Shown here: positions 3,467 to 13,507 of the stretch, in pieces
Numbering within the stretch: position 1 is the first letter of the stretch
Layout of the letters: every line of letters begins with the position of its first letter
Virus record (IMG/VR): IMGVR_UViG_2534681663_000023
Coordinates: 1 to 13,507 of that record
Reading direction: 5' to 3' (one strand)
Length of the DNA stretch: 13,507 bases
DNA from: a virus
Taxonomy: Duplodnaviria > Heunggongvirae > Uroviricota > Caudoviricetes
Translations under genes and position numbers: made by a program
Notes under the pieces: generated by a model
Told to the model about the DNA's origin: nothing
The model's database searches: none
Seen by the model: only the letters and a program-made list of their open reading frames with translations

Positions 3467-3541
3467 TGGCGATGGTGGGTGGACTCGAACCACCGACCAG
3501 TTGATTAACAGTCAACCGCTCTACCACTGAGCTACACCATC
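3467..3541 (-). tRNA. tRNA-Asn (anticodon GTT), 75 nt with encoded CCA
   Basis: Manual fold of the minus strand: acceptor GATGGTG/CACCATC, D-arm GCTC-AGTGGTA-GAGC, anticodon stem GTTGA/TCAAC with loop CTGTTAA (U33, GTT, A37), variable TGGTC, T-arm GGTGG-TTCGAGT-CCACC, discriminator G, CCA. Confidence 0.85.
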
Positions 3542-5114: not shown

Positions 5115-5156
5115 TCTTTATCTCCAATACGATCTTCGGTATCTCGAAGACATTTA
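5111..5156 (-). other. Displaced native 3' end of the ligase gene (encodes ...CLRDTEDRLGDKE-stop), separated from the gene body by the transposon
   Basis: Joining the sequence right of the right-hand ATTTA to the sequence left of the left-hand ATTTA keeps the ligase frame open for 13 more codons and ends at TGA 5113-5111. Confidence 0.55.
5152..5156. repeat. Target-site duplication ATTTA, left copy (right copy at 10797-10801)
   Basis: Identical 5-bp sequence immediately outside each terminal inverted repeat; 5-bp duplications are typical of Tn3-family transposition. Confidence 0.8.
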
Positions 5157-5194
5157 GGGGAGCCCGCAGAATTCGGAAAAAATCGTACGCTAAG
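5157..5194 (+). repeat. Transposon terminal inverted repeat, tnpA-proximal (38 bp); contains the tnpA stop codon
   Basis: GGGG...ACGCTAAG architecture typical of Tn3-family ends; tnpA stop at 5190-5192 lies within it. Confidence 0.85.
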
Positions 5195-8156
5195 GTTTTC
5201 CGGGCATCCGTAAGGGCCGAAACTTCCCGTCTTCCAGTCTGCGGCTCTGCCGCCAGACGTAATCGCCGGTTAGGTTGATGTGCTCCCAGCCCAGCGGCGA
5301 CAGGAATTGCAGCAGCTCGCCGTCCACCGGCTTGCCGGCCTCGACCAACCCCTGGGTGGCGCGTTCCAGGTACACCGTGTTCCACAGCACGATAGCCGCC
5401 GTCACCAGGTTGAGGCCGCTGGCCCGGTAGCGCTGCTGCTCGAAGCTCCGATCCCTGATTTCCCCAAGGCGGTTGAAGAACACCGCCCTGGCCAGCGAGT
5501 TGCGCGCCTCACCTTTGTTCAGGCCGGCATGCACGCGGCGGCGCAGTTCAACACTTTGCAGCCAGTCCAGGATGAACAGCGTGCGCTCGATCCGGCCCAG
5601 CTCGCGCAGGGCCACGGCCAGTCCGTTCTGGCGCGGGTAGCTGCCGAGCTTGCGCAGCATCAGCGAGGCGGTGACGGTGCCCTGCTTGATCGAGCTGGCC
5701 AGGCGCAGGATGTCGTCCCAGTGGGCACGCACGTGCTTGATGTTCAGGGTGCCGCCGATCAGCGGGCGCAACGTCGGGTAGGCTTGCACGCCCTGCGGCA
5801 CGTACAGCTTGGTTTCGCCGAGGTCGCGGATGCGCGGCGCGAAGCGGAAGCCTAGCAGGTGCATCAGGGCAAAGACGTGATCGGTGAAGCCGGCCGTGTC
5901 GGTGTAGTGCTCCTCGATCCGCAGGTCGGACTCGTGGTACAGCAGGCCGTCGAGCACATAGGTGGAATCGCGGACGCCGACATTCACCACGCGGGTGCTG
6001 AACGGCGCGTACTGGTCGGAGATATGGGTATAGAACAGCCGTCCCGGCTCGCTACCGTACTTCGGGTTGACGTGCCCGGTGCTCTCGCCCCGGCCACCCG
6101 CGCGGAAGCGCTGGCCATCGGAGGATGAGGTCGTGCCGTCGCCCCAGTGGGCGGCAAAGGCGTGGCGATACTGGTGGTTGACCAGCTCGGCCAAGGCCGC
6201 CGAATAGGTTTCGTCGCGGATGTGCCAGGCTTGCAGCCAGGACAGCTTGGCGTAGGTCAGGCCGGGGCTCGACTCGGCCATCTTGGTCAGCCCGAGGTTG
6301 ATCGCATCACCGAGGATTGCGGACAGCAGCAACGTCCTGTCTTTGGCCTCGGCCCCGTCCTTCAAGTGGGTGAAGTGGCGGCTGAAGCCCGTCCAGTCGT
6401 CCACGTCCATCAGCAGTTCGGTGATCTTGATGCGCGGCAGTAACTGGCTGGTTTGGTCGATCAGCGCCTGCGCCCGATCCGGCACCGCCGCATCCAGCGG
6501 GGGGATTTTCAGCCCTGACTCGGTGAGGATGGCATCGGGCAGCTCGTTGTCCTTGGCCAGGCGGGTGACGGTGGCCAACTGCTCGTCCAGCAGCTGCAAA
6601 CGCTCTTCCAGGTACTGGTCGCTGTTCGGGTTGATCGCCAGGGGCAGGGCCTGCTCGCGCTTGAGTGCGGCGAACTTCTCGGCCGGCAGCAGGTAGTCGT
6701 CGAAGTCGCGGAACTGCCGCGAGCCCTTGACCCAGATGTCGCCGGAGCGCAGGGCGTTCTTCAGCTCGGACAGGGCGCAGATTTCGTAGAATTTCCGGTC
6801 GAGGCCTTCCGGGGTGATCACCAGCGGCTTCCAGCGCGGCTTGATGAAGGCCGTGGGTGCATCGGCCGGCACCTTGCGCAGGTTGTCGGCGTTCATCTCA
6901 CGCAGGGTCTGCACGGCTGCCAGCACGCCTTGCGCGGCCGGCGCGGCGCGCAGTTCCAGCACCTCCAGCAAGGCCGGCGTGTAACGGCGCAGGGTGGCGA
7001 AGTTCTCGCCGACCAGGTGCAGGTGGTCGAAGCCTTCCGGCCGGGCCAGCAGCTCGGCCTCGCTGACGCTCTCGGTGAACTCGTCCCAGGGAATCACCGC
7101 CTCGATGGCGGCATAGGGGTCGCTGCCGCTTTCCTTCGCTTCCAGCAGCGCCTGGCCGATCCTGGAGTACAGGCGCACCTTGTCGTTGATCGCCTTGCCC
7201 TGCTTCTGGAACTGCTGCTGATGCTTGTGCTTCGCGCCGCTGAACAGCTTGACCAGGATGCGGTCATGCAGATCGACCAGCTCATCGATCACGGTCGCGG
7301 TGCTCTCCAGCACCACGGCGGCCAGGGTCGCGTAGCGGCGCTGCGGCTCGAACTTACCGAGGGCTTTGGGCGTCATCTGCCCACCCTCGCGGGCCAGCTT
7401 GAGCAGGCGGTTCTGGTGGATGTGCCGGCCCAGGCCTTCGGGCAAGTCCACCAACTGAAATGTCTTCAGCCGCTCGATGTGTTCCAGCATGTGCCGAGAG
7501 TTGGGTTTCAGCGGTGCCTGGCGCAGCCAGGTCAACCAGGTGATGCTGCTGCCGGCCTTGAGCTTCAACAGCTCGTCCAGCTTGGCCCGATGCGAGTCCG
7601 TGAGTGGTTCGACCAGGGCGCGGTAGACCCGCCGATTGGCTCGCGCAATGGCTTCCGAGCAGGCCCGGTCAATCACGCTCAGCGCCGGCAGGATGCGTCG
7701 TTTCTGCCGTAGGCTCTCCAGGGCCTGACCGGCCAGCAGCAAGCCTTTGTCGGTCTGCTGGGCCAGCTCGGTTAGCTCGCGCACCAGGGCGCGGAAGTCG
7801 GACAGGCCGAACGGGGCCAGTTGCAGGTAGGTGCGCAGTTCCTGGGCATGCTCGCGACGGGTCACGTCGCGCTCGCCGTACTTTGCCCAGCTCGCCGGCT
7901 CGGCCTGGACTTGCTTCGCCACCCACAGGATGACCGGCTCGGGCAGCTCGCTGTCGGTTCCCAGCGCGTAACCGGGGTAGCGCAGCAGGCAGAGCTGCAC
8001 GGCGAAGCCGAGGCGGTTGGCGTCGCCGCGTCGCTGGCGGATCAGCGACAGGTCGGAGTCGTTGAAGGTGTAGTAGCGGATCAGGTCATCCTGGCTTTCC
8101 GGCAGCGCAAGCAGGGTGTCCCGCTCCGTGGCCGAGAGGATCAAGCGACGCGGCAT
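5190..8156 (-). CDS. tnpA: Tn3-family transposase TnpA (988 aa)
   Basis: Length and sequence ([44 protein letters not shown]...) match Tn21/Tn501-type TnpA as recalled; very GC-rich relative to its surroundings; terminates inside the terminal repeat. Confidence 0.95.
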
Positions 8157-8159
8157 GTG

Positions 8160-8720
8160 TCAGTCGTCCGTGCGGAGGTACTGGTAGAGGGTTTCCCGGC
8201 TGATGTTGAACTCGCGGGCAAGCTGCGCCTTGGGCTCGCCGGCCGTCGCTCGCTGCCGCAGGGTAGCAGCCTGCTCATCGGACAGGGCTTTCTTGCGGCC
8301 CCGGTACGCGCCACGCTGCTTGGCCAAGGCGATGCCCTCACGCTGCCGCTCGCGGATCAGGGCGCGCTCGAACTCAGCGAAGGCCCCCATCACCGACAGC
8401 ATCAGGTTGGCCATCGGCGAGTCCTCGCCAGTGAACACCAGGCCCTCCTTCAGGAACTCGATGCGCACGCCGCGCTGAGTCAGCTTCTGTACCAAGCGAC
8501 GCAGGTCATCGAGGTTGCGGGCCAGCCGATCCATGCTGTGCACCACCACTGTATCGCCTTCGCGGACGAAGCTCAGCAGCGCTTCGAGCTGGGGGCGCTG
8601 GGTGTCCTTGCCCGATGCCTTGTCGGTGAACACCTTGCTCACCTGGGTTTGTTCCAGCTGGCGTTCCGGGTTCTGGTCAAAGCTGCTGACCCGGACGTAG
8701 CCGATGCGGTGCCCCTGCAC
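8160..8720 (-). CDS. tnpR: Serine resolvase TnpR (186 aa)
   Basis: N-terminal serine-recombinase motif (IGYVRVSSFDQNPERQ), C-terminal HTH (ISRETLYQYLR); sits directly upstream of tnpA in the same orientation, as in the Tn21 subgroup. Confidence 0.95.
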   Translation of the reverse strand: MQGHRIGYVRVSSFDQNPERQLEQTQVSKVFTDKASGKDTQRPQLEALLSFVREGDTVVVHSMDRLARNLDDLRRLVQKLTQRGVRIEFLKEGLVFTGEDSPMANLMLSVMGAFAEFERALIRERQREGIALAKQRGAYRGRKKALSDEQAATLRQRATAGEPKAQLAREFNISRETLYQYLRTDD

Positions 8721-8724
8721 GATG

Positions 8725-8900
8725 TCTCCTTGGTTGAAGGCGGCTTAAGTGCACTTTCTGTTCCGTTGTGCCTCAAAGCCCATTTCTGTCAGGCTGAAAT
8801 CTATAACCTTCGCGGGCATGTGTCAAAAAATGGGAAAGCAGACTCTATTCTGACGAAGCGGCGCGGCCCTGCCTGACATCAAGTTAGGGTATAGCCTAGA
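8725..8900. promoter_or_regulatory. Putative res (resolution) site and tnpR promoter region
   Basis: Lies immediately upstream of tnpR and contains several TGTCA/TGACA half-site-like repeats (TGTCAGGCTGAAAT..., CATGTGTCA, CTGCCTGACATC). Exact subsite boundaries not determined. Confidence 0.5.
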
Positions 8901-9029
8901 TTGACATGCGCGATGCAACCCTTAACTTGCTTGCACCTATCGTTTCCATGCTAGCTTTATCGTAACGCTCAAGAAATTGGGCTTAATGCCGAAAACAATA
9001 AAATAAAACAGCCAACCCTTGAGGTTCTT

Positions 9030-10607
9030 ATGCGCCAGAATTTACCAGTGACGGGTCGAAACTTAGAACTCCCAAAAGATGCCAATATTCTTTCGACTAC
9101 CTCCCCTCAAAGCCATATCACGTACGTTAATCCTGACTTCATTAAAATCAGTGGTTTCACTGAGGAAGAACTATTAGGCCAGCCTCACAACATCGTAAGA
9201 CACCCAGATATGCCGCCTGCTGCATTTGAGCATATGTGGAGTACATTAAAATCTGGCCGCTCATGGATGGGGCTAGTAAAAAATCGCTGTAAAAATGGCG
9301 ACCACTATTGGGTAAGTGCTTATGTAACGCCAATAGCTAAGAATGGTTCGATTGTTGAATACCAGTCTGTAAGGACCAAGCCTGAACCTGAGCAGGTTTT
9401 GGCTGCGGAAAAATTATATGCTCAATTGAGAAGCGGGAAGGCCGCGAGGCCGAAATTGGCTGCTAGCTTTTCCGTGAAAATACTCTTGCTCATATGGGGT
9501 AGTATTATATCAAGCGCAATGGCTGCCGGCATGCTTACTGATACATCAATAAGCAGCTTATTGTTAGCCACTTTAATGTCAGGAAGCTTAAGCTCTGTTA
9601 GTGTTTTGGCTATTCTCTCTCCTCTTGGAAGACTGGTTGAAAGAGCCAGGAATATTTCCAATAACCCATTAAGTCAATCCCTCTACACTGGGCGCACCGA
9701 TGAGTTTGGCCAAATAGAGTTTGCTTTACGAATGATGCAAGCTGAAACAGGCGCCATAGTAGGTCGCATAGGTGATGCATCAAATCGGCTTAGCGAACAC
9801 ACCCGAGGCCTACTAAAGGATATTGAGTCAAGCAATGTACTTACAGTTGAGCAGCAGGCAGAGACAGATCAAATAGCAACGGCAGTAAACCAAATGGTGG
9901 CAAGCATTCAAGAGGTTGCGAGCAATGCACAGCATGCTGCAGATGCGGCCGGAAGAGCAGACACTGAGACGGCATCTGGCCAGCGTCTGGTAGCCCACAC
10001 AAGCCAGTCAATCACTGCCCTTGAAGGTGAAATTAGGCAAGCCACTCAGGTTATTCATGAGCTTGAAGGTCAAAGTAACGAGATATCAAAAGTTCTTGAC
10101 GTTATACGAGGGATCGCCGAGCAAACGAATTTGTTGGCACTCAACGCAGCAATTGAGGCCGCGCGTGCTGGTGAGCAGGGGCGTGGTTTTGCTGTTGTCG
10201 CCGATGAGGTTCGCAGTCTTGCTGCTCGCACACAGCAATCGACAACGGATATTCAAAGCATGATCAGCGCTCTACAAGAGCGAGCGCAATCCGCTGTTAC
10301 AGTCATGGAGCAAAGTAGTCGGCAAGCGCACACGAGTGTAGCTCACGCAGAGGAAGCAGCTACAGCTCTTGATGGAATTGGCCAACGCGTTAACGAAATT
10401 ACCGACATGAACGCGCAAATAGCGACTGCGGTCGAGCAGCAGGGAGCAGTAAGTGAAGACATAAACCGCAGTATTATCAATATACGCGATGCTGCTGATA
10501 CCAATGTACAGACCGGGCAGAATAATTTGCAAAGTGCGAAATCTGTCGCTCAGTTAACTAGCGCTCTGAGCGAACTGGCAAAACAGTTTTGGGAAAAACG
10601 AGGATAA
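9030..10607 (+). CDS. aer: Aer-like aerotaxis receptor (N-terminal PAS, membrane hairpin, methyl-accepting chemotaxis signalling domain), 525 aa; transposon passenger
   Basis: N-terminus closely resembles E. coli Aer PAS ([68 protein letters not shown]); hydrophobic hairpin near residues 150-195; conserved signalling core ([32 protein letters not shown]). Confidence 0.85.
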
Positions 10608-10626
10608 CGCTTTTCAGTATCTCGAC

Positions 10627-10661
10627 AGGGATAACTTACTTTACCATCGGTTATCCCTTTT
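10627..10661 (+). terminator. Rho-independent terminator after the chemoreceptor gene
   Basis: Hairpin AGGGATAAC-(14 nt)-GTTATCCCT followed by TTTT, about 20 bp after the stop codon. Confidence 0.5.
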
Positions 10662-10740
10662 AGCCGCACAAATTTTAGCCATGGCTTTTCAGGAAGTCAG
10701 GGCTATCAGAATGGCCTTAGAAAGCCTAGTCAAAGAGCTG

Positions 10741-12078
10741 TCACGAGAACACCGTTAGCTTAGCGTACGATTTTTTCCGAATTCTGCGGTTCCCCCATTT
10801 AGGCCACTTCAGACGTGGATGACGCAAGCTACCATCTGGCGTTTTCTCATGGCAGTGAACCTCAACGATGCGTCCACGATACTTCTCCTGATTGTTCCAG
10901 ATTTCATCCAGGTATTTATGCTTGATACCGCTGGCACGAACGATGACGCCGTTCTCCAGACGAATCACTATCTTGCCTAGCGTATGCGCAAATCCAGAAT
11001 CCGGATCGCCAGGCTCGAAGTCGATGATTTCACCGTCTTCTGAATCCTCGTCTTTCAGCTTCCACCAGCTGCGGGTACGTTTGAACTCGTAAACTGAATC
11101 CGGATCTTTGCCCATCTCTCCCTCTTCATTCTCGTCCAGTCGCTTCATGAAACGTTCGATGAAATCTTCGTGGCTATGGATGATGTAGAACGGATGAAGG
11201 TGGATATCTTGCGCATAATCTTCCACGCAAGTGTTGCGGAACAACGCCACCAGCATAGCCAGGCGCTCTTTCAGCTTCATACCGGTCTTCAGGTACTCTT
11301 TGCTTTTTGCTTGAGCACGCCACTCCGGTAAGAAGAAATCGAAAATGTGGTAAACGGCACCAATGGCTTTCACGTTCTTCTTACGAAGCGCCGACACTGA
11401 CTGGTTGAATGTACCTGCAGTGCCCTCTCCATCGAAGAAGATGTGATTGAAGCCGGAGAGTCTGCCCCGCTCCAGCATGGCTGGTTTAAGGTGATCGAGT
11501 GACGTAATCGGATTGCCGGTGCGCGTCAGGAAATTGACCTCACCCTCGTCCACGATGACTTCGCAGATAACCCGGAGACCATCGAGTTTGAGACTGCCGA
11601 TCATTGGCCACTTGGCCTTTGGATTTGGTTTAAATGGGTATTTGTCGCCTTTCTCCTTGTACGGAGACGCCAGCTGTACCTCAAACTTCGGAATTGGGTT
11701 TTCGAACACCTTGTTGCACAGGCTGATGCCGACACCGGCTTTCGGATCTTTCAGCAGGAAGCGACGAAACACGTCCTGCCCGTCAGCGCACATCGAGGCA
11801 ACGAGTGATTCGACAGCAGCAATAGCGATGTTCCCGGTCAGTTCGCGCGCTGCCAGCTTCTCCAGCAGATCTACTACCTTCTGGTCGCTGGGTACGGAAG
11901 TATCGAGTGGCTCGGCCACTTTGTACTTCTTCACACCGAATCGAATGAATGGATTGAGCATTAGCGAGACCATGCTCTGTTCAAATTCATCCAGATTGGC
12001 CAGCGCCTCTTTCTTGGCGTTGGTTCCCATCGTTTTAATAGCATCCAGCTTGTGCTTTAGGGCGATCAGTTTTTCCAT
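10741..12078 (-). CDS. T4-type ATP-dependent DNA ligase; 3' end interrupted by the transposon (last 18 codons of this ORF are read from the ATTTA duplication and terminal repeat)
   Basis: Nucleotidyltransferase motifs in order: I KLDGLR, III FFDGEG, IIIa YHIFDF, IV EGEMGKD, V WWKLK, VI LRHPRL. N-terminal region parallels T4 ligase as recalled (LTGNIAIAAV, ISLCNKVFENPIP, LASPYKEKG). GGAGG lies about 10 nt upstream of the ATG. Confidence 0.85.
   Translation of the reverse strand: MEKLIALKHKLDAIKTMGTNAKKEALANLDEFEQSMVSLMLNPFIRFGVKKYKVAEPLDTSVPSDQKVVDLLEKLAARELTGNIAIAAVESLVASMCADGQDVFRRFLLKDPKAGVGISLCNKVFENPIPKFEVQLASPYKEKGDKYPFKPNPKAKWPMIGSLKLDGLRVICEVIVDEGEVNFLTRTGNPITSLDHLKPAMLERGRLSGFNHIFFDGEGTAGTFNQSVSALRKKNVKAIGAVYHIFDFFLPEWRAQAKSKEYLKTGMKLKERLAMLVALFRNTCVEDYAQDIHLHPFYIIHSHEDFIERFMKRLDENEEGEMGKDPDSVYEFKRTRSWWKLKDEDSEDGEIIDFEPGDPDSGFAHTLGKIVIRLENGVIVRASGIKHKYLDEIWNNQEKYRGRIVEVHCHEKTPDGSLRHPRLKWPKWGNRRIRKKSYAKLTVFS
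10759..10796 (-). repeat. Transposon terminal inverted repeat, passenger-proximal (38 bp)
   Basis: Reverse complement matches the tnpA-proximal repeat at 35 of 38 positions; followed immediately by ATTTA. Confidence 0.85.
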
Positions 12079-12112
12079 TAGTGTTTAACCTCCATCGGTC
12101 GCTCGGGAGTTT

Positions 12113-12589
12113 TCATGTGTTTTCTTTGGTTGCTTCTTCAATGAGTGCCGCGTACACGTCAGTGACCGGCGCCAGTGAATCGGTGGGCTTGGTTTCGGAT
12201 TTAGCAGGTTCTGTTTTCTTCGTGCGATGAATAAGACTGTCAATTGTCGCGGTGTTTCGCTTCCGGGGGAGCGTTCTGGCATGGTCGTTTTGCTCTTCCA
12301 CTTCTTTGATAAGTGAAGACATATCGATGAAGTAGAGCTGTTCGTCTTTGCGGATCTCTTCGACCATCATTTTCAGTGCCTGACATTTACCAGCAGCAAT
12401 AGCCGCAGCGCAGGACTGGAACGATGTAGCCGGGAGACGTTTTTCTTTATAGGCGAGGATCGTGTGTTGGCAGACTGTATAGCTGCAATGAGCCTCATGG
12501 CCGTTGAGCTTCACTTCCGGGCAGCGCAGCGAATAACCGTTGTTTCCGGAGATAGACGGGATTTTCGACAAATCTGTTCTTGTGGACAT
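12113..12589 (-). CDS. Hypothetical Cys/His-rich protein (158 aa), possible zinc-binding; directly upstream of the ligase
   Basis: ORF track; cluster RCPEVKLNGHEAHCSYTVCQH...CAAAIAAGKC; 34-bp gap to the ligase start, same strand. No family recognised. Confidence 0.45.
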   Translation of the reverse strand: MSTRTDLSKIPSISGNNGYSLRCPEVKLNGHEAHCSYTVCQHTILAYKEKRLPATSFQSCAAAIAAGKCQALKMMVEEIRKDEQLYFIDMSSLIKEVEEQNDHARTLPRKRNTATIDSLIHRTKKTEPAKSETKPTDSLAPVTDVYAALIEEATKENT

Positions 12590-12636
12590 GCTTCTAACCG
12601 TAATCTTGTACTTACTTATTAATCGCAGTTTAAAGA

Positions 12637-12653
12637 AGCCCCACGAGGGGGCT
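12637..12653. other. Short GC hairpin (AGCCCC-ACGAG-GGGGCT) between the upstream gene and the 158-aa gene
   Basis: Read from the sequence; no convincing U-run on the minus strand, so it may be an attenuator or structural element rather than a terminator. Confidence 0.25.
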
Positions 12654-12670
12654 AAATGTTTTATCGAGGC

Positions 12671-13069
12671 TTACCAGGTCGCCCAGCCAGTCATTTTGTC
12701 CTGAGCAGCTTCGAACCGGTATGGGTCCAGTAAATCGTTGGTACGATGAACGGCGTAGGATTTGGCTTCTTGTTTAATCATGGGTAATTCGTTGGCCAGA
12801 CGAGCCACTTGCCCTGCAAAACTGGCGAGTACTCCGTCACATGCCTGACCCGCGTCGACAATGATGCGCACCAGGTCTAAGTCGCTGCGGCACATATCGC
12901 AGATAATGCCGTATTCCACCTCACGAATGCGCTCAACGGCTTTTTTGATATCGCCACTGACCACCAATTCCAGCAAACCAGGTGGAGTTGTCAGATCTGT
13001 TACGCGCTCGGTAACTTCAGACTGTTCGACAATACTCAGGAACGCCGCGATGGACGGGTCATCCGCCAC
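12671..13069 (-). CDS. Hypothetical protein, probably the C-terminal part of a larger gene truncated by the IS3-family insertion
   Basis: The annotated start is GTG with no clear RBS; the frame stays open for 19 more codons upstream (ERFEDIVDATLRTLKVRAG...) right up to the IS boundary at 13127. No family recognised. Confidence 0.4.
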   Translation of the reverse strand: MADDPSIAAFLSIVEQSEVTERVTDLTTPPGLLELVVSGDIKKAVERIREVEYGIICDMCRSDLDLVRIIVDAGQACDGVLASFAGQVARLANELPMIKQEAKSYAVHRTNDLLDPYRFEAAQDKMTGWATW

Positions 13070-13126
13070 ACCAGCTCTGACTTTGAGCGTGCGAAGAGTT
13101 GCGTCGACAATATCCTCAAACCGTTC

Positions 13127-13507
13127 TGAACCGCCCCGGAAATCCTGGAGACTAAACTCCCTGAGAAAGAGGTAAACAGGATGACTAAAAATACTCGTTT
13201 TTCCCCCGAAGTCCGTCAGCGGGCGATTCGTATGGTTCTGGAAAGTCAGGATGAATATGACTCACAGTGGGCGGCAATTTGTTCCATTGCCCCAAAGATT
13301 GGCTGTACGCCGGAGACTCTGCGTGTCTGGGTTCGCCAGCATGAGCGGGATACCGGGGGCGGTGATGGTGGGCTCACCAGCGCTGAACGTCAGCGTCTGA
13401 AAGAGCTGGAACGTGAAAATCGTGAACTGCGCCGCAGTAACGATATCCTTCGCCAGGCTTCCGCTTATTTTGCGAAGGCGGAGTTCGACCGCCTCTGGAA
13501 AAAATGA
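13127..13507 (+). mobile_element. IS3-family insertion sequence (IS629/IS1203-like), left end; continues beyond the window
   Basis: Terminal sequence TGAACCGCCCCGGAAATCCTGGAG... followed about 55 bp later by an OrfA-type gene; matches the IS629-like left end as recalled. Confidence 0.8.
13181..13507 (+). CDS. IS3-family transposase OrfA (108 aa, HTH plus leucine zipper)
   Basis: [23 protein letters not shown]...[34 protein letters not shown] is the typical IS3 OrfA; ends at an A6 run before TGA, consistent with the programmed -1 frameshift site into OrfB, which lies outside the window. Confidence 0.9.

Follow-up and report, generated by a model that had tools for sequence, protein, structure and literature searches.

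The window, the whole 13,507-nt stretch of DNA analysed here, belongs to the Escherichia coli contig AQDJ01000151.1 (assembly GCA_000354975.1) and carries at its right-hand end a cluster of genes oriented on the minus strand. Counting against the direction of transcription, the cluster includes an ATP-dependent DNA ligase gene (10741..12078; Pfam DNA_ligase_A_M, E=6e-12; phrog_114, E=1.6e-122), an intact gene for a 158-aa protein of phrog_5055 (12113..12589, E=4.5e-92) and the 3' fragment of a 270-codon gene of phrog_4248 (12671..13126, 151 codons plus stop), of which the 158-aa gene is the conserved downstream partner. The assignment of the fragment is based on its PHROG match and its identity to relatives. 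Downstream of the ligase cluster, also on the minus strand, lies a gene for tRNA-Asn (GTT) at 3467-3541. Two mobile elements interrupt the region: a Tn3-family transposon of the Tn1722/Tn1721 type (5156..10795), inserted into the 3' end of the ligase gene, and the left 381 bp of an insertion sequence on the plus strand (13127..13507), which runs off the edge of the window.

The gene content of the region is that of an SSU5-like phage-plasmid. The order helicase, primase, homologue of the disrupted gene, 155-160-aa gene, ligase, small ORFs and tRNA-Asn is found in Salmonella phage SSU5, Klebsiella pJN2-26 and E. coli Cyrano, and the window has the same order from the disrupted gene through tRNA-Asn. 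PhiR41_1 keeps the order through a 156-aa gene, after which no ligase is annotated. The counterpart of the 158-aa gene occupies the same position in all four. In SSU5 genes 042, 043 and the ligase gene 044 are arranged as in the window, and the backbone of the window is 91.3% identical to SSU5 over 1037 bp, sharing with it the order 042-043-ligase-small ORFs-tRNA-Asn.

The first-pass annotation had recognised an IS3-family element at the edge of the window, and this element can now be named as IS1203, an isoform of IS629. At 100% identity, window positions 13127-13507 match positions 1-381 of the 1310-bp copy of IS1203 in a reference locus (L009), and RefSeq labels the matching element 'IS3-like element IS1203 family transposase', marking a frameshift pseudoknot (AL1L) on the matching copies. 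Within the window the element encodes orfA (13181-13507, plus strand, 108 aa; Pfam HTH_Tnp_1, E=2e-12), which is transcribed divergently from the disrupted gene; orfB, with its rve domain, lies outside the window and is present in sibling contigs. The end of the element, TGAACCGCCCCGG, begins at 13127. The left terminus seen in the window, TGAACCGCCCCGGAAATCCTGGAGA, begins with TG, while the right terminus, located beyond the edge of the window and read from L009 and L018, is ...TCTCCAGGAAACCCGGGGCGGTTCA and ends with CA; together they form the imperfect terminal inverted repeats TG...CA. Immediately adjacent to the left end, positions 13124..13126 (TTC; GAA on the gene strand, codon E120) are the near copy of a 3-bp target-site duplication, the only copy within the window; both copies are seen as GAA/GAA in the sibling contig L018 and as TTC/TTC at the L009 reference copy.

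Next to the element the ORF finder delimited a 132-aa ORF on the minus strand, starting at a GTG (13069-13067) and ending at a stop codon at 12673-12671. Its extent had been given correctly, as had the poor context of its start: the GTG is preceded by ..CAGAGCTGGT, in which AGAG is at best a weak ribosome binding site. Between this GTG and base 13126 the frame contains 19 stop-free codons (ERFEDIVDATLRTLKVRAG), from which it had been proposed, with due reserve, that a larger protein had lost its N-terminal part. The reserve was appropriate. A run of 19 stop-free codons is expected by chance with a probability of about (61/64)^19 = 0.40, and the frame, which is indeed open up to the boundary at 13126/13127, continues through 45 more open codons inside the IS, the first in-frame stop being at 13262-13264. 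Because of this chance level and the run into the IS, the open frame upstream of the GTG is not evidence in itself and is not diagnostic; it is homology that shows the truncation to be real.

Homology to IS-free plasmids is extensive and ends exactly at window base 13126. The segment 12090-13126 is 99-100% identical to plasmids of 100-115 kb in 48 complete E. coli genomes. In two IS-free loci compared, L001 (NZ_CP010244.1) and L002, the alignment with the window is unbroken up to position 13126, with 100% identity in L001. Past the position equivalent to 13126 the IS-free relatives carry 357 further coding bases, and RefSeq annotates there an 813-bp CDS of 270 aa. The gene in IS-free relatives encodes 264–270 aa and belongs to phrog_4248. 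The intact protein matches positions 1-266 of the 266 positions of this family (E=1e-140), the 151-codon fragment of the window only positions 116-266 (E=4e-81), and the 132-aa ORF only positions 135-266. The window fragment does not match phrog_4248 from end to end and thus is a truncated member of it. In the 270-aa allele it represents residues 120-270, in the 264-aa allele residues 114-264, and it matches the last 151 aa of both the intact allele P0001 and the protein of L001 with 100% identity.

More distant relatives were also considered, as had been suggested when the truncation was first proposed. A tblastn search of phage genomes gave 11 records, including SSU5, five Klebsiella phage-plasmids and four E. 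coli records (Cyrano and PhiR41_1 among them), which align over residues 1-270 with 42-87% identity. The fragment is matched by 45 protein clusters, the intact ones being 259-265 aa long. Every intact relative has 259-270 aa and aligns from residue 1, well before the position equivalent to the GTG, and the N-terminal half of the homologues contains invariant and nearly invariant columns. The closest named counterpart, the hypothetical protein SSU5_042 of Salmonella phage SSU5 (264 aa, phrog_4248), shares 87% aa identity with the intact E. coli allele; unlike SSU5_042, the gene in the window is split by IS1203. Compared with SSU5_042, the 270-aa E. coli allele has an extra 18-bp tandem duplication, encoding VYTNQT twice, just upstream of the insertion site. 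This duplication, located in L018 at 8580-8615 in the 5' fragment and hence outside the window, separates the 270-aa from the 264-aa alleles.

These comparisons also bear on whether the 132-aa ORF might be a genuine short gene, with the C-terminal domain made alone, either natively or after the insertion, and the open frame upstream being coincidental. Such coincidence would not be surprising, since 19 open codons are expected by chance in about 40% of cases and the frame continues into unrelated IS sequence; in addition, the fragment amounts to a whole predicted domain, and many assemblies carry a gene call for the 132-aa product. However, the N-terminal 113-119 residues are present in all intact homologues, down to 42% identity. 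In the alignment the GTG (13067..13069, minus strand) is an internal valine codon, V133 of the 264-aa form and V139 of the 270-aa form, located in a poorly conserved, variable column; its ribosome binding site is unconvincing, with no promoter-like site nearby, and every 132-aa call examined either lies at the junction with the IS or belongs to a disrupted copy of the gene. As a native gene the short ORF is already contradicted, and in either form this explanation is barely credible. The alignment and the sequence upstream of the GTG rather indicate that the 132-aa ORF is an artefact of ORF finding, namely the tail of a larger gene left with no native start. Annotation should treat it not as a gene but as the 3' part of a gene disrupted by the IS, paired with the 120-codon 5' fragment beyond the element, described below.

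The far side of the insertion could be examined in other assemblies. No record spanning the IS junction was found among PLSDB plasmids, complete RefSeq E. coli genomes or INPHARED phages. The 132-aa product itself, looked up by exact sequence, occurs in 68 blocks of an assembly collection, 24 of which supplied the contigs that were read. The 80-nt junction of the window is identical in L018, L019, L020, L021, L023, L024, L026 and L027, as well as in the source contig. Its presence in at least nine independent assemblies means that the junction is not an assembly artefact and represents a real inherited allele. IS1203 in general is present in thousands of E. coli records; neither PLSDB nor the complete E. 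coli genomes of RefSeq contain this particular insertion allele, which recurs in draft and metagenome assemblies.

Three of the sibling contigs (L018, L019 and L023) span the whole IS, and in them the far junction, with the 120-codon fragment, its TGA stop and the GAA duplication, is located 1310 bp from the near junction. With slashes marking the boundaries of the element, the arrangement in L018 in gene orientation is ...TGT GCG ATG AAG GTG AA/TGAACCGCCCCGGG...(1310 bp)...CCGGGGCGGTTCA/GAA CGG TTT GAG; the far junction itself reads ...GATGAAGGTGAA/TGAACCGCCCCGGGTTTCC, as a continuous string GATGAAGGTGAATGAACCGCCCCGGGTTTCC. A direct duplication of GAA flanks the IS at 8631-8633 and 9944-9946. 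The IS copies of L018 and L019 are 100% identical to IS1203 over 1310 bp, and L018 and the window are 100% identical over 2,712 bp comprising the IS end, the gene fragment, the 158-aa gene and the ligase gene up to the transposon. On the far side of the element in L018 there is a 5' fragment of 120 codons (MKEEF...VYTNQTVCDEGE), for which the three outermost bases of the IS end provide the TGA stop. Here too is the native start, an ATG with AGGAG in front of it (L018, 8260-8276). In silico removal of the IS and one copy of GAA from L018 gives an uninterrupted ORF of 270 codons. It had been proposed that the far flank, once found, should continue the same reading frame, and in this sibling it does so, being neither unrelated DNA nor DNA that closes the frame with a stop.

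Exact look-ups in the protein collection returned neither the predicted N-terminal fragment (114 or 120 aa, ending CDEGE followed by TGA) nor the N-terminal fragment actually seen in L018; the N-terminal protein search returned other disrupted alleles.

Some of the siblings differ in the element or in the displaced part of the gene. In L020 (about 8477-9149) and L021 (363-2543) the similarity of the IS1203 at the same site to the reference is confined to positions 1-795, after which comes a gene for a group II intron reverse transcriptase (RVT_1 and GIIM domains); this is suggestive of an intron, or of some other rearrangement, within the element. In the metagenome contig L023 the element at the identical site (1660-2969) is 97.2% identical to IS1203, with 37 mismatches; this divergence could come from gene conversion or from an assembly that joined IS629/IS1203 variants into a chimera. 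When the gene is reconstructed from L018 (8274-8636), it differs from the intact L001 allele (7038-7394) in four residues (46, 47, 69 and 94), all of them within the displaced 5' fragment, and two of the changes, P69S and T94I, are also differences from the intact allele P0001. Relaxed selection after the disruption could account for these changes, which are too few to judge.

The simplest account of the locus is that a complete IS1203 inserted by ordinary transposition and split a 270-codon phrog_4248 gene of an SSU5-like phage-plasmid, to which a probability of about 0.93 is assigned. Directly observed are the truncated state of the gene, the IS1203 identity of the element and its junction with the gene, together with the far flank and the duplicated target in the siblings. 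According to this account, the 1310-bp element would have inserted after codon 120 of the 270-codon gene, duplicating the 3-bp target GAA. Beyond the IS, the 5' part would retain the native ATG with its AGGAG ribosome binding site and the DNA upstream, and would encode a 120-aa product ending at the TGA supplied by the IS, while the 3' part (window 12671-13126) would be left without a native start. The gene has probably been inactivated by IS1203. The proposal that a larger protein had lost its N-terminal part was accordingly correct as to the truncation, borne out by the homologues and by the restriction of the match to positions 116-266 of phrog_4248, but not as to a loss of sequence, since in the siblings the N-terminal part is not deleted but displaced by 1.3 kb as a 120-codon fragment.

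The source contig ends 12 bp past the window, at IS position 393, and its own far flank is therefore unseen. This leaves room for a different history, in which the IS, through adjacent deletion or recombination between IS copies, deleted or rearranged part of the source plasmid, so that the 5' part and the upstream region are missing altogether. The IS of L020 and L021, matching only positions 1-795 beside the group II intron reverse transcriptase gene and with no far junction in the fetched DNA, would be compatible with such events, as would the other IS remnants located 95 bp upstream of the gene already in IS-free relatives. Those remnants, however, share no detectable similarity with IS1203 and so provide no substrate for homologous recombination; being IS3-family remnants, they were considered as possible IS1203 copies and rejected because the sequences are dissimilar. 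Moreover, three sibling contigs with the identical junction show simple insertion with the 3-bp duplication, one of them being 100% identical to the window over 2.7 kb. A deletion or rearrangement in the source plasmid is thus very unlikely, and simple insertion of IS1203 remains the preferred explanation; to judge from its siblings, the source plasmid, whose contig ends inside the IS, probably carries the same far flank.

In mechanistic terms this insertion does not differ from known insertional disruptions by IS1203/IS629 in E. coli, and only its target, a gene of the replication module of a phage-plasmid, is particular. With a hypothetical phage-plasmid gene as its target, it is a textbook case of insertional disruption by an IS3-family element. 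Otherwise near-identical phage-plasmids of the SSU5 group have already been described as gaining and losing IS elements (bioRxiv 10.1101/2025.09.12.675607).

Transcription of the genes downstream of the insertion, those for the 158-aa protein and the ligase, may be reduced as well, because the IS separates them from the upstream region. The first-pass annotation had regarded the disrupted gene as the first of the ligase operon and as having lost its promoter. Regarding the promoter, the native ATG, the ribosome binding site and the upstream region do lie beyond the IS. In the promoter scan no sigma-70-like site was found in 11900-13507, and none was convincingly placed upstream of the native ATG. 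As nothing was found on either side, the scan does not discriminate. Regarding the operon, a divergent gene is located upstream in SSU5 and pJN2-26, which is consistent with the phrog_4248 gene being the first in its unit, but in Cyrano and PhiR41_1 the primase gene lies 75 bp ahead of it in the same orientation. A spacer of 81 bp separates the disrupted gene from the 158-aa gene, the latter being identical in the window and L018, and contains a G+C-rich hairpin, AGCCCC-acgag-GGGGCT (12637..12653, flagged on the plus strand), with T-rich tails on both strands, the minus-strand tail being TTCTTTAA. The hairpin is terminator-like and, as a possible terminator, would argue against a single operon. 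The position of the disrupted gene at the head of a ligase operon is plausible but not established.

Clues to the nature of the protein were sought in its predicted structure and in remote similarities. An AlphaFold2 model of the intact homologue P0001, built with an alignment of 22 sequences, is confident, with a mean pLDDT of 88.7 and a pTM of 0.75, and divides into an alpha/beta domain at the N terminus (residues 1-111; two helices, four-stranded sheet) and an entirely helical domain at the C terminus (residues 116-262). On the model the insertion point of the IS, which follows residue 114 in the 264-aa form, falls in the linker at the domain boundary. No intact protein could be produced from the split gene, because the cut falls in the linker between the predicted N- and C-terminal domains.

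The phrog_4248 protein has no match in Pfam, including zf-dskA_traR, and none in sequence searches of PDB; Foldseek comparison with BFVD gave no TM-score above 0.27 when normalised to the query. NCBIfam DksA_like gave a sub-threshold score of 18.4 bits against a cut-off of 105; the match, present in 16 of the 22 members, themselves mutually related, spans ..AVERIREVEYGIICDMC.. The conserved cysteines are limited to C189, C192 and C209, short of a four-cysteine zinc finger, and with such a score assignment to the DksA/TraR zinc-finger proteins is not supported. The resemblances to DksA/TraR and to sigma-factor region 2 are leads only, membership in either group being not supported.

The second mobile element of the window is a Tn1722-like transposon identified by the Pfam domains of its genes, which encode TnpA (988 aa), TnpR (186 aa) and a methyl-accepting chemotaxis protein with a PAS domain (525 aa). 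It is bounded by 38-bp terminal repeats, with the ends GGGGAGCCCGCAGAATTCGG... and ...CCGAATTCTGCGGTTCCCC, and by a target duplication ATTTA with one ambiguous flanking base, so that its end coordinates are uncertain by a base or two. The transposon is absent from L001 and L018. Through its insertion the ligase gene has exchanged its last 13 native codons for 18 that belong to the transposon end, giving a product of 445 aa instead of 440 aa; the ligase of the window is identical to that of L018 through residue 427 and diverges thereafter. Its C-terminus is unique, an exact look-up of the ligase having yielded a single contig, AQDJ01000151.1. Two plasmids with a chemotaxis-protein gene near the ligase gene (H61 and H62) were considered as examples of the same arrangement and rejected, since theirs is a different, independent one. 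The replication module of the window thus carries two mobile-element insertions, IS1203 and the Tn1722-like transposon, within 2.4 kb, which bears on the capacity of the phage-plasmid for lytic growth.

Other, independent disruptions of the phrog_4248 gene were observed in other assemblies (loci L012-L017). They include an IS30-family element near codon 90 (P0048), the end of a Tn1721-type transposon at codon 33 (P0057), a split near codon 175 in about 200 contigs, the longest of 4.9 Mb (P0044/P0059), and a frameshift near codon 45 (P0055). One speculative interpretation, which seems improbable at present, is that these repeated and independent hits, together with the one in the neighbouring ligase gene of the window, reflect selection to silence the lytic-replication module, by which a phage-plasmid would be domesticated into a plain plasmid. 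In a related version the protein, given its DksA/TraR-like motif and a helical domain resembling sigma region 2, would be an RNA-polymerase-binding regulator whose loss locks the plasmid state.

A further difference between the window and its IS-free relatives is located at positions 2270-2702. These 433 bp, with short ATGG repeats at the ends, are present in the window and most sibling contigs and absent from L001 and L002. In this region a 138-aa gene for a YafO-toxin-like protein overlaps a gene of 175-182 aa, and L001 and L002 have instead a single hypothetical CDS of 164 aa.
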